NCBI GenBank assembly: GCA_964363455.1
Contig: CAYIIM010000002.1
Coordinates: 1 to 40,332 of the forward strand
Reading direction: 5' to 3'
Source of the DNA: an uncultured Candidatus Saccharibacteria bacterium
Lineage (GTDB): Bacteria; Patescibacteriota; Minisyncoccia; UBA6257; 2-01-FULL-56-20
Length of the DNA: 40,332 nt
The translations under genes and the position numbers were made by a program. Shown here in pieces: positions 12,266 through 13,660 of the stretch (positions are counted from its first letter, which is position 1; every line of letters begins with the position of its first letter). The notes under the pieces were generated by a model. It worked only from the letters and a program-made list of their open reading frames with translations, was not told where the DNA came from and made no database searches.

Positions 12266-12451
12266 TTAGGCGGCTTCGAACCTTGCCTTATTTTCGGCCA
12301 TCCATTTCACCTGTCCCTCTTTGCCGTGCTTAGGATCATTCACGACATCAGCATGAACCTGCATGTAATGAGGCATCAGTGCCTTCATCCACTCGTCGAA
12401 AGTCTCACCTTGCGCTGTCACATCACATAAATCGCATTTAAGTGTTTTCAT
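12266..12451 (-). CDS. small hypothetical protein (DUF1059-like impression)
   Basis: 61-aa ORF reading MKTLKCDLCDVTAQGETFDEWMKALMPHYMQVHADVV. Confidence 0.5.
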   Translation of the reverse strand: MKTLKCDLCDVTAQGETFDEWMKALMPHYMQVHADVVNDPKHGKEGQVKWMAENKARFEAA

Positions 12452-12463
12452 AATTGAAGTTTA

Positions 12464-12499
12464 ACAAAACACATTTCCCATAACAAGATGTGTGTTTTG
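12464..12499 (-). terminator. AT-rich hairpin downstream of the tRNA
   Basis: CAAAACACA / TGTGTTTTG stem of about 9 bp, then TTGTTAAAC on the minus strand. Weak U tract. Confidence 0.35.
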
Positions 12500-12520
12500 A
12501 ACCGACCTACGCTTATTTTG

Positions 12521-12815
12521 CTCCCCGGGTAGGATTCGAACCTACGACCTTATCCTTACGCTTATCCTCGTGTTACCACGGGCGCGGACTATATCATCAC
12601 CCTTATTGCAGGGGCAAGGCGCTTCGCCAATCATTGATATGACCAGCTACTCTCTTTCGAGATAGTCTCTACACCTTCCTCGCTTTCGCGAGGCTTGGCT
12701 CGGGATTCCCCTTTTTGAAAAGGGCTCCCCCGAATTCACCTTGTTTTTCAACCAAAATTACTTTTGCAGGCTGCCTATTTGACAGGGATCCGCTCTACCA
12801 CTGAGCTACCGGGGA
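12521..12815 (-). tRNA. tRNA-Asn(GUU) interrupted by a group I intron; CCA not encoded
   Basis: Exon 1 at 12815-12782 is TCCCCGGTAGCTCAGTGGTAGAGCGGATCCCTGT. Exon 2 at 12558-12521 is TAAGGATAAGGTCGTAGGTTCGAATCCTACCCGGGGAG. Joined, they form a 72-nt cloverleaf with anticodon loop CTGTTAA, a U1-A72 pair and G73. Confidence 0.8.
12559..12781 (-). ncRNA. group I intron (IC3-like, ORF-less, 223 nt) in the anticodon loop
   Basis: Core strings GGTGAATTCGG, CCCGAGCCAAGCC and GGAAGGTGTAGAGACTA resemble the Azoarcus and Anabaena tRNA introns. P1 forms as CTGT|C with GGCAG, giving U.G at the splice site. The terminal G is at 12559. Confidence 0.75.
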
Positions 12816-12850
12816 ATGCATTGACTAGTGTACCAAAACAGAATCCTTTT

Positions 12851-13660
12851 TCAAGCTTTGATATAGGGTTTGAGACTACTCAATAAATCCTGATGTAAAG
12901 CTCCATTCGTGATTACCATCCCCTTTTCTCTTTTAACATTTTCCTGATTATACAACAGTGGATCACCATACAAATCCGTCATCTCCCCACCCGCTTCGCG
13001 GATGATAATATCCGGCGCGCAAGTATCCCATTCTGAAGCTAAAGATCCGAAACTGAAATAAGTATCGAATTTACCAATCGCAATCAAGCCAACTTTGTAA
13101 GCAAAGCTCCCAACCGGCACAGAATCTTTTACTCCTAGCTCCTCTAAAATCTCAACTGTCCTAGTTGAAGTCAGTCCTGACCGGCTCACTAAAAAAGTTG
13201 CCTTTGAAAAGTCAATCGTACCAGAAACGTGAGCAGGTTTTATCTCTCCATCTCTTTCTTGAAAAAAAGCTCCGCCCCCTTTCTCGGCAAAAAATAATTG
13301 TTTAGAAAAAGGATTATAAACGACTCCCAATATTGACTCGGACTTCCTAGCCAATCCGACCACCACGGTAAATTCTCCCGACTTTGAAATAAAATCCTTC
13401 GTCCCATCCATCGGATCCACGATCCAAAGATATTCCGACTTCAGACGATCCATATTATCCACCGTCTCTTCCGAAAGAATCGGATAAGAAAAACTTTTGT
13501 TCAGCTCTTCTTTTATATACTTCTCCGCCGCAAAGTCCGCTTCCGTTACCGGGGTGTTGTTATCTTTTTCTTGCGTTGAATAATCCCGATCATAGAAATC
13601 AAGCAGAATTGCGCCAGCACCTTTGGCTATCTCAACTACTTTTTCCAAATCTTTACTCAT
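12851..13660 (-). CDS. inositol monophosphatase / CysQ-type 3'(2'),5'-bisphosphate nucleotidase family protein
   Basis: Motifs LSEE, WIVDPMDGTKDF and WDTCAPDIIIREAGG. ORF trimmed to the ATG at 13658-13660 (MSKDLEKVVEIAK). Confidence 0.85.
   Translation of the reverse strand: MSKDLEKVVEIAKGAGAILLDFYDRDYSTQEKDNNTPVTEADFAAEKYIKEELNKSFSYPILSEETVDNMDRLKSEYLWIVDPMDGTKDFISKSGEFTVVVGLARKSESILGVVYNPFSKQLFFAEKGGGAFFQERDGEIKPAHVSGTIDFSKATFLVSRSGLTSTRTVEILEELGVKDSVPVGSFAYKVGLIAIGKFDTYFSFGSLASEWDTCAPDIIIREAGGEMTDLYGDPLLYNQENVKREKGMVITNGALHQDLLSSLKPYIKA

Follow-up and report, generated by a model that had tools for sequence, protein, structure and literature searches.

Which tRNA, if any, is encoded where two halves of a tRNA gene lie 223 nucleotides (nt) apart and a standard tRNA finder reports nothing? 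This question is raised by positions 12521 to 12815 of a 40,332-nt stretch of metagenomic DNA from contig CAYIIM010000002.1, which was analysed here over its whole length and is called the window throughout. An earlier note on this DNA had described the two halves as exons of a tRNA-Asn(GUU) gene with a group I intron inside its anticodon, and had predicted that automated tools would miss or mis-assign the gene; in keeping with that prediction, ARAGORN with default settings found no tRNA anywhere in the window. We read the locus, at a probability of roughly 0.88, as a tRNA-Asn(GUU) gene of an uncultured groundwater bacterium of the Candidate Phyla Radiation (CPR, or Patescibacteria), in which a 223-nt group I ribozyme without an open reading frame (ORF) separates U35 from U36.

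The split gene and its predicted product

We read the sequence from 12400 to 12950 and found all of the tRNA halves and intron elements that had been described earlier, at the same positions and on the minus strand. The 5′ half (12815-12782) reads TCCCCGG TA GCTC AGTGGTA GAGC G GATCC CTGT, and the 3′ half (12558-12521) reads TAA GGATA AGGTC GTAGG TTCGAAT CCTAC CCGGGGA G, with no CCA encoded at the end of the 3′ exon. Between them, the intron (12781-12559) holds the core strings GGTGAATTCGG, CCCGAGCCAAGCC and GGAAGGTGTAGAGACTA, the last of them followed by the hairpin TCTC-GAAA-GAGA, just as the earlier note had it. Also as claimed there, the intron is ORF-less: no sense-strand ORF of at least 40 amino acids lies inside the 223 nt, and we found no intron-encoded homing endonuclease of the LAGLIDADG, GIY-YIG, HNH or a similar type in it. 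The proposed group I assignment was tested with the Rfam model RF00028 (Intron_gpI), which matched 12797-12566 (-) across its full length (model positions 1-253) at 57.8 bits, against a gathering score of 50, with an E value of 2.9e-12. When the whole window was scanned with Rfam, Intron_gpI gave the single match above the gathering score. The 238-nt intron region has a folding z of -3.37 relative to dinucleotide shuffles, and its minimum-free-energy fold holds P1, P2, P4/P5, P6a, P7.1, P7.2, P8 and P9. The split-gene observation is far beyond chance.

Removing the 223 nt in silico joins the halves into a 72-mer with the anticodon loop CUGUUAA, and ARAGORN called this product as tRNA-Asn(gtt) with a normal cloverleaf, bearing out the earlier claim that splicing gives the anticodon GUU. 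The same product occurs naturally. When metagenomes were scanned for GAGCGGATCCCTGTTAAGGAT, the junction expected after splicing, 72 contigs proved to carry an uninterrupted tRNA-Asn(GUU) gene, among them genes identical to the spliced product over the whole overlap at L240 (72/72), L294 (72/72) and L245 (71/71, one base short because the gene is cut by the contig end). L240 comes from Hainich well H41 and L245 from Hainich well H51, the same aquifer as the window, and the uninterrupted gene of L240 scores 70.7 bits on the Rfam tRNA model. Many further uninterrupted tRNA-Asn genes match the product at 69-71 of 72 positions. The uninterrupted genes share no synteny with the window in their flanks, and they belong to other, related organisms. 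They also bear on a G27.A43 mismatch at the top of the anticodon stem, which the earlier note had counted as a blemish: the same mismatch is present in 72/72 uninterrupted metagenomic tRNA-Asn genes sharing this anticodon arm, and it is thus a trait of the lineage rather than damage.

Structure, splice sites and rival explanations

Homologues were sought with a pattern composed of the CTGT anchor and two conserved core strings, which matched 109 loci in IMG/VR and at least 120 loci in the GTDB species genomes. On the basis of ARAGORN's intron mode and exon matching, at least about 90 of the 229 loci are tRNA-Asn genes split at the identical site (CUGU/intron...G/UAA, slashes marking the splice sites), nearly all of them with U1...A72 and G73. 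We aligned 74 non-redundant split genes with MAFFT, namely the window gene and 73 homologues among the matches listed, mapped a hand-drawn structure of the window intron onto this alignment and counted pairs, comparing five pairing measures with 500 shuffles. Standard pairs occupy 88.5% of the cells, versus 68.2% when partners are shuffled and 33-46% when they are slid by 1-3 columns, and 958 cells are changed on both sides where 327 would be expected. None of the 500 shuffles reached any of the five measures. The membership of the intron in group I, its helices and both of its splice sites follow from this covariation together with the model match (Table 1).

At the 5′ splice site, the P1 helix described earlier (CUGU/C with GGCAG) is present, with its U.G pair at loop position 4 conserved in 72/73 homologues. 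At the other end, the final G of the intron at 12559 falls in a column (G232) that is G in 74/74 sequences, and the UAA that follows is invariant as well. The placement of the intron between anticodon bases 35 and 36, as first proposed, is supported by the U.G pair at loop position 4 and by covariation of P9.0. The two hairpins between P7 and P3′ are present in about 50 of the 74 aligned introns. Of the 69 columns that are conserved at 90% or more, the window carries the consensus base in 67. The two deviating columns are G55 in J4/5 and G197, the latter compensated by C222 in P9.0, and with so many columns matched and one of the deviations compensated, the ribozyme looks intact.

Table 1. Features of the tRNA-Asn locus and its flanks, with pairing in the alignment of 74 split genes (numbers without five digits are intron or tRNA positions)
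Feature	Position	Strand	Description	Pairing in the alignment
tRNA-Asn 5′ exon	12782..12815	-	tRNA positions 1-35; acceptor 5′ strand, D arm, anticodon stem 5′ strand, loop C32 U33 G34 U35	
Group I intron	12559..12781	-	223 nt, ORF-less, last base G	
tRNA-Asn 3′ exon	12521..12558	-	Positions 36-73; U36 A37 A38, stem 3′ strand GGATA, variable loop, T arm, acceptor 3′ strand, G73	
P1	12771..12785	-	C32-U35 (12785-12782) and intron C1 (12781) pair with guide G7-G11 (12775-12771); U35.G8 marks the 5′ splice site	96.9% paired; C-G 74/74, U-A 73/73, G-C 73/73, splice-site U.G 72/73 of sequences with letters
P2 hairpin	12753..12766	-	16-20/25-29, GUAA loop; from minimum-free-energy fold and alignment	96.7% paired; 5/5 pairs covary
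P3	12615..12743	-	39-45/161-167; encloses the P4-P6 domain, the P7 5′ strand, P7.1 and P7.2	98.9% paired; 5/7 pairs changed on both sides
P4-P5-P6-P6a domain	12673..12733	-	P4 49-53/78-82, P5 58-61/71-74, P6 83-85/107-109, P6a 89-94/99-104 with GAAA loop	P4 99.5% paired, 4/5 pairs covary; P5 63.5% paired; P6 99.1% paired, almost invariant; P6a 94.1% paired, 6/6 pairs covary
P7	12586..12669	-	G113 and 115-119 (12669-12663) pair with 191-196 (12591-12586), that is G113(A114)G115-A119 opposite U191-C196; A114 bulged	100% paired; 5/6 pairs invariant across 74 sequences
P7.1 and P7.2, extra hairpins between P7 and P3′	12627..12662	-	P7.1 120-123/128-131, GAAA loop; P7.2 136-143/148-155; both in the minimum-free-energy fold	P7.1 67% paired, P7.2 84% paired; all pairs covary in both; each helix missing in a subset
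P8 hairpin	12600..12613	-	169-172/179-182; fold prediction	59.7% paired
P9.0, P9 and terminal G	12559..12585	-	P9.0 197-198/221-222; P9 202-205/210-213, GUAA loop; G223 at 12559	P9.0 79% paired, both pairs covary (AU, GC, CG, UA types); P9 83% paired, 4/4 pairs covary
Promoter-like site	12827..12854	-	TTGAAA-16 nt-TACACT, TG before the -10; 9/12 consensus matches; ends 11 nt upstream of tRNA position 1	
Putative terminator	12466..12498	-	A/U-rich hairpin then GUU; -12.4 kcal/mol, z -1.5; weak	

This structure suggests how the gene would be expressed. Transcription, probably from a promoter of its own some 11 nt upstream, would yield a single precursor in which the intron would fold into a standard group I core (the P3-P9 and P4-P6 domains) with two extra hairpins between P7 and P3′. 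C32-U35 would pair with the internal guide GGCAG as P1, setting U35.G8 at the cleavage site. P7 is the established guanosine-binding site of group I introns, and the corresponding helix of the window intron would, by analogy, bind guanosine in the same way. A free guanosine held there would attack after U35; G223, positioned by the 2-bp P9.0, would then occupy the same P7 pocket, and the freed 3′-OH of U35 would attack after G223. Joining of the exons would give the loop CUGUUAA in a 72-nt tRNA-Asn(GUU), to which CCA would be added later. We infer from these features that the window intron is removed by the two-step catalysis typical of group I, and that splicing does take place, whether it is autocatalytic or protein-assisted. 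The spliced product would be the working tRNA-Asn of this organism, and possibly its only one.

An alternative is that the host is tRNA-Thr(CGU) and the intron lies two bases further 5′, at loop position 2 (CU/GUC...AAG/CGUAA). In this arrangement too, the 5′ site follows a U and the intron ends in G. ARAGORN's intron mode makes exactly this call on the unspliced window DNA (tRNA-Thr(cgt), i(33,223)) and similar Thr or Asp calls on many homologues, and the seed alignment of Williams (bioRxiv 2020, doi 10.1101/2020.01.27.920355) holds a 'Thr.2Ug' entry with the same cuguc...GGCAG P1. In P1, however, the partner of the U at loop position 2 is an A, whereas the U.G wobble is at position 4 in 72/73 homologues, and P9.0 covaries directly before G223, not before G221. 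The tRNA body also argues against a Thr host. Known identity rules require G73 for asparaginyl-tRNA synthetase and G1-C72 for threonyl-tRNA synthetase. The U1-A72 pair and G73 of the window gene, which the earlier note had judged to fit bacterial tRNA-Asn, do match those intact tRNA-Asn genes of the fetched loci that are cleanly delimited; they are unlike tRNA-Thr there, which has G1-C72 in 37/43 genes and G1-C72 plus U or A at position 73 in 31/43. When the body was scored against 427 intact tRNAs of the fetched loci, Arg, Asn and Thr came out similar and uninformative, so that only the 1-72 pair and position 73 discriminate; this isotype table is noisy because the 3′ ends given by ARAGORN are variable. 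Finally, uninterrupted genes identical to the Asn-spliced product exist, whereas the Thr-type junction GGATCCCTCGTAAGGAT occurs in 0/310 fetched loci. The Thr intron placement by ARAGORN is arbitrary, and on these grounds (the position of the U.G pair, P9.0, the tRNA body, the uninterrupted Asn genes and the missing junction) a tRNA-Thr(CGU) host is effectively refuted and very improbable.

The intron might instead be a decayed relic that does not splice, with the tRNA a pseudogene and tRNA-Asn supplied by another gene. Splicing is predicted here from the sequence, and several observations weigh against a functional split gene. The window covers 40 kb of the genome, which leaves room for a second, intact tRNA-Asn gene elsewhere. 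P5 and P8 are weakly supported by the alignment, yet P5 is predicted in the window's own fold, and the weak support for P8 probably comes from poor alignment of a region of variable length. J4/5 reads GAG in the window, where the first position is A in 93% of homologues, although the G55 variant is found also in a few of them, such as L129. By inspection, P10 between the 3′ exon and the guide sequence amounts to at most one or two weak pairs, whereas a clear P10 (UUA with UAA) is formed in some homologues (L030, L198, L212 and L229). A terminator scan of the flank called none, the hairpin at 12466..12498 included. Against decay stand the 67 of 69 highly conserved core positions that are kept, with one of the two deviations compensated, the intactness of every core helix, and exons that show no decay and match functional-looking uninterrupted genes base for base. 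In the small genomes of CPR bacteria, each tRNA usually has a single gene. Moreover, Lui et al. 2021 (PMC8172020) found that closed CPR genomes needed intron-containing tRNAs for a full amino-acid set. We consider a relic improbable. Still less likely, with next to no probability, is that tRNA-like halves and intron-like motifs came to lie together by chance, or that the assembly is chimeric here. The metagenome assembly is of low coverage (about 4x in replicate contigs), but the Rfam E value of 2.9e-12, the identity of the product to natural genes, the 73 homologous split genes and the identical sequence in an independent replicate assembly (L237) refute both. A tRNA-Asn(GUU) gene split by a group I intron that looks intact is the reading that we retain.

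Relation to known intron classes

The earlier note had regarded an Asn host as unusual, which did not hold: an Asn.4Ug class already appears in Williams 2020, and at least about 90 such loci (73 of them non-redundant) are among the 229 fetched. That work extended the four classical bacterial tRNA intron settings to 21, and its seed alignment includes Pam37.Asn.4Ug, Mba143.Tyr.4Ug and Wba81.Asp.4Ug; we confirmed the Asn.4Ug class from the supplementary Stockholm file. The window has the features that mark this class, with a tRNA-Asn(GUU) host, an intron after the fourth loop base, U at -1 and a terminal G. The kind is therefore already described, computationally and in a preprint, and the window intron adds a new sequence to it. 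In the literature searched we found no splicing experiment for the Asn.4Ug class, and searches for group I introns in tRNA-Asn otherwise returned organelle and mitogenome papers only. Of such introns, the tRNAscan-SE 2.0 paper names those in fMet and Ile2 and no others, and Lui et al. 2021 reported that CPR tRNAs are often hidden by group I introns.

Pam37.Asn.4Ug is among the closest known counterparts of the window intron. Both interrupt tRNA-Asn(GUU) at the site CUGU/...g/UAA, with U at -1 and a terminal G; both have the P3/P3′ motifs GGGUG...AGCGCCC, the core strings GAGACUA and AUAGUCC, extra hairpin(s) between P7 and P3′, and the 3′ end AUAAG-N-G. Such extra hairpin(s) are found in several of the new Williams classes, Pam37.Asn.4Ug among them. 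The two introns differ in sequence and host organism, and in Pam37 the P2 region is longer and the P6 insertion larger. Among the matches listed by BLAST, those closest to the window intron are about 75% identical in parts. Paceibacterota, Zambryskibacteria, Adlerbacteria and Saccharibacteria are among the groups that carry the closest relatives of the intron in the loci listed.

The classical introns of subgroup IC3 in tRNA-Ile(CAU) of Azoarcus and tRNA-Leu(UAA) of Anabaena/Nostoc likewise lie in a bacterial anticodon loop, lack an ORF and form P1 from loop bases, and they share with the window the core strings AAUUCGG, CCGAGCCAAGC, GGUGUAGAGACUA and AUAGUCC (Aol6.Ile2.5Ug row). They are self-splicing, as is predicted for the window intron. 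The host tRNA and the loop position differ, with the intron after base 5 in Ile2 and after base 3 in Leu versus after base 4 in the window. The core motifs are thus common to the window and IC3, but the stretch between P7 and P3′ is 41 nt long in the window and forms two covarying hairpins, versus a junction of 2-3 nt in Azoarcus. Introns of subgroup IA, for example phage T4 td, carry P7.1 and P7.2 between the 5′ strand of P7 and the 3′ strand of P3. This is the same topological place as that of the two window hairpins; the likeness is one of topology, and the core motifs of the window are those of the IC3-type tRNA introns, unlike those of subgroup IA.

Introns of the Tyr.4Ug and Asp.4Ug classes (Williams 2020; L132, L141, L144, L195 and L208) occupy the same loop position and have the same CUGU/GCAG P1 as the window, because the loops of Asn, Tyr, Asp and His tRNAs begin C/U-U-G-U. 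The P1 of Wba81.Asp.4Ug, which reads cuguc-aAUAGA-GGCAG, is nearly identical to that of the window. In these classes the base after the intron is A (Tyr) or C (Asp), and the tRNA body differs. We found tRNA-Tyr(GUA) split at the same site (CUGU/...G/AAA) in at least six loci, L132, L141, L144, L195 and L208 from Omnitrophota and L197 from Anaerolineae, and the Omnitrophota Tyr intron L141 is within the three best BLAST matches to the window intron among the matches listed.

Some features of the family complicate its annotation. Many Asn.4Ug introns end in ...G-N-G, so that placing the intron at loop position 2 likewise gives U at -1 and a terminal G, and as a result ARAGORN's intron mode labels such genes Thr or Asp. 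The seed rows Pgr210.Thr.2Ug and Wba81.Asp.4Ug, compared by P1 alone, have the cuguc...GGCAG P1 of the Asn introns, and these two labels may deserve re-checking. A 352-nt Asn.4Ug intron in Patescibacteria H43-bin091 (L143:1501-1869 (+)) holds two copies of the GAGCCAAG...GAGACT core motif separated by about 90 nt, which suggests an internal partial duplication.

Genomic setting, spread and meaning

The window makes up a complete metagenome contig. Proteins identical to those of the window are encoded on contigs from well H51 of the Hainich aquifer (0.1-µm fraction), and the replicate assembly L237 carries an identical 399-bp interval that runs from CysQ to a downstream 61-aa gene and includes the intron. 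The upstream neighbour of the tRNA gene encodes a CysQ/inositol-monophosphatase protein whose best matches are at most 52% identical, the named ones belonging to the Parcubacteria group, Magasanikbacteria and Patescibacteria. Together with the relatives of the intron, these matches point to a CPR/Patescibacteria host. Genes in the window include those for CysQ, UppP, DUF2238, an RNA methyltransferase, the F-type ATP synthase operon, RmuC, FtsZ, FtsA and HisRS, and the surroundings are an ordinary CPR chromosome fragment, not a mobile element. At the edge of the contig (249-1454 (-)) lies a gene for a Fic/DOC-family protein that has a Fic_N domain at its N terminus. GC skew is strongly negative in every 2-kb segment of the window. 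Its values lie between -0.11 and -0.37 and average about -0.24, and the plus-strand gene block (15-26 kb) and the minus-strand blocks show it alike, an unusually strong asymmetry for a bacterial chromosome segment.

Promoter-like sites in the region number 2 versus 1.1 expected from shuffles, which is weak evidence for the one upstream of the tRNA gene. The other (TTGCCC-18-TATAGT, 12588-12617 (-)) lies inside the intron, where it overlaps the conserved GAUAUAGUCC of P7, and almost certainly arises by chance from conserved ribozyme sequence.

We also sought an orthologous locus through the CysQ neighbour. The closest relative, from Parcubacteria group bacterium Athens0714_16 (L233), is only 52% identical, and the intron found there is not in tRNA-Asn: a group I intron (L233:5400-5830 (-), 64.7 bits on Rfam) lies in an initiator-type tRNA-Met(CAU) gene near the CysQ relative. 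A free-standing ORF with faint to weak LAGLIDADG matches stands beside a tRNA cluster on the same contig (L233:6185-6865 (+)). No tRNA was found near a second CysQ homologue (L235).

Among the matches listed, hosts of split loci include Saccharibacteria, many lineages of Parcubacteria and Microgenomates, Omnitrophota, Elusimicrobia and Aminicenantes, as well as Clostridia-type bins, Planctomycetes, Gammaproteobacteria and Burkholderiales. About 35 contigs of the IMG/VR viral collection have tRNA-Asn(GUU) split at the same site (L006, L019, L027, L037, L053, L058, L061, L068, L070 and L097 among them), with introns of about 190-235 nt, mostly about 210 nt. Most of these IMG/VR introns are without the two hairpins between P7 and P3′. 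One speculative possibility, which we rate as rather unlikely, is that this endonuclease-free family is still moving among CPR and other bacteria by reverse splicing into tRNAs with a CUGU loop, perhaps by way of phage-borne tRNA genes; its candidate targets, named just as tentatively, would be the queuosine-family tRNAs Asn, Tyr, Asp and His. Genes whose exons are identical, some with the intron and some without, occur together in one aquifer, related introns are found at this site in tRNA-Tyr, and split tRNA-Asn genes stand on many IMG/VR contigs; these observations are consistent with ongoing mobility but do not prove it.

The locus leaves the current understanding of group I introns unchanged. 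It is a clean, fully mapped example of a class known from one computational preprint, and at 223 nt, ORF-less and with GNRA-capped helices, it would make a convenient construct for in-vitro work on Asn.4Ug introns. Its value lies mainly in the annotation pitfall that it exposes. Standard tRNA finders miss the gene, with ARAGORN calling nothing by default and Thr in its intron mode, and a CPR bin carrying such a gene would consequently seem to lack tRNA-Asn, an apparent loss that distorts inferences about completeness and auxotrophy in these bacteria.

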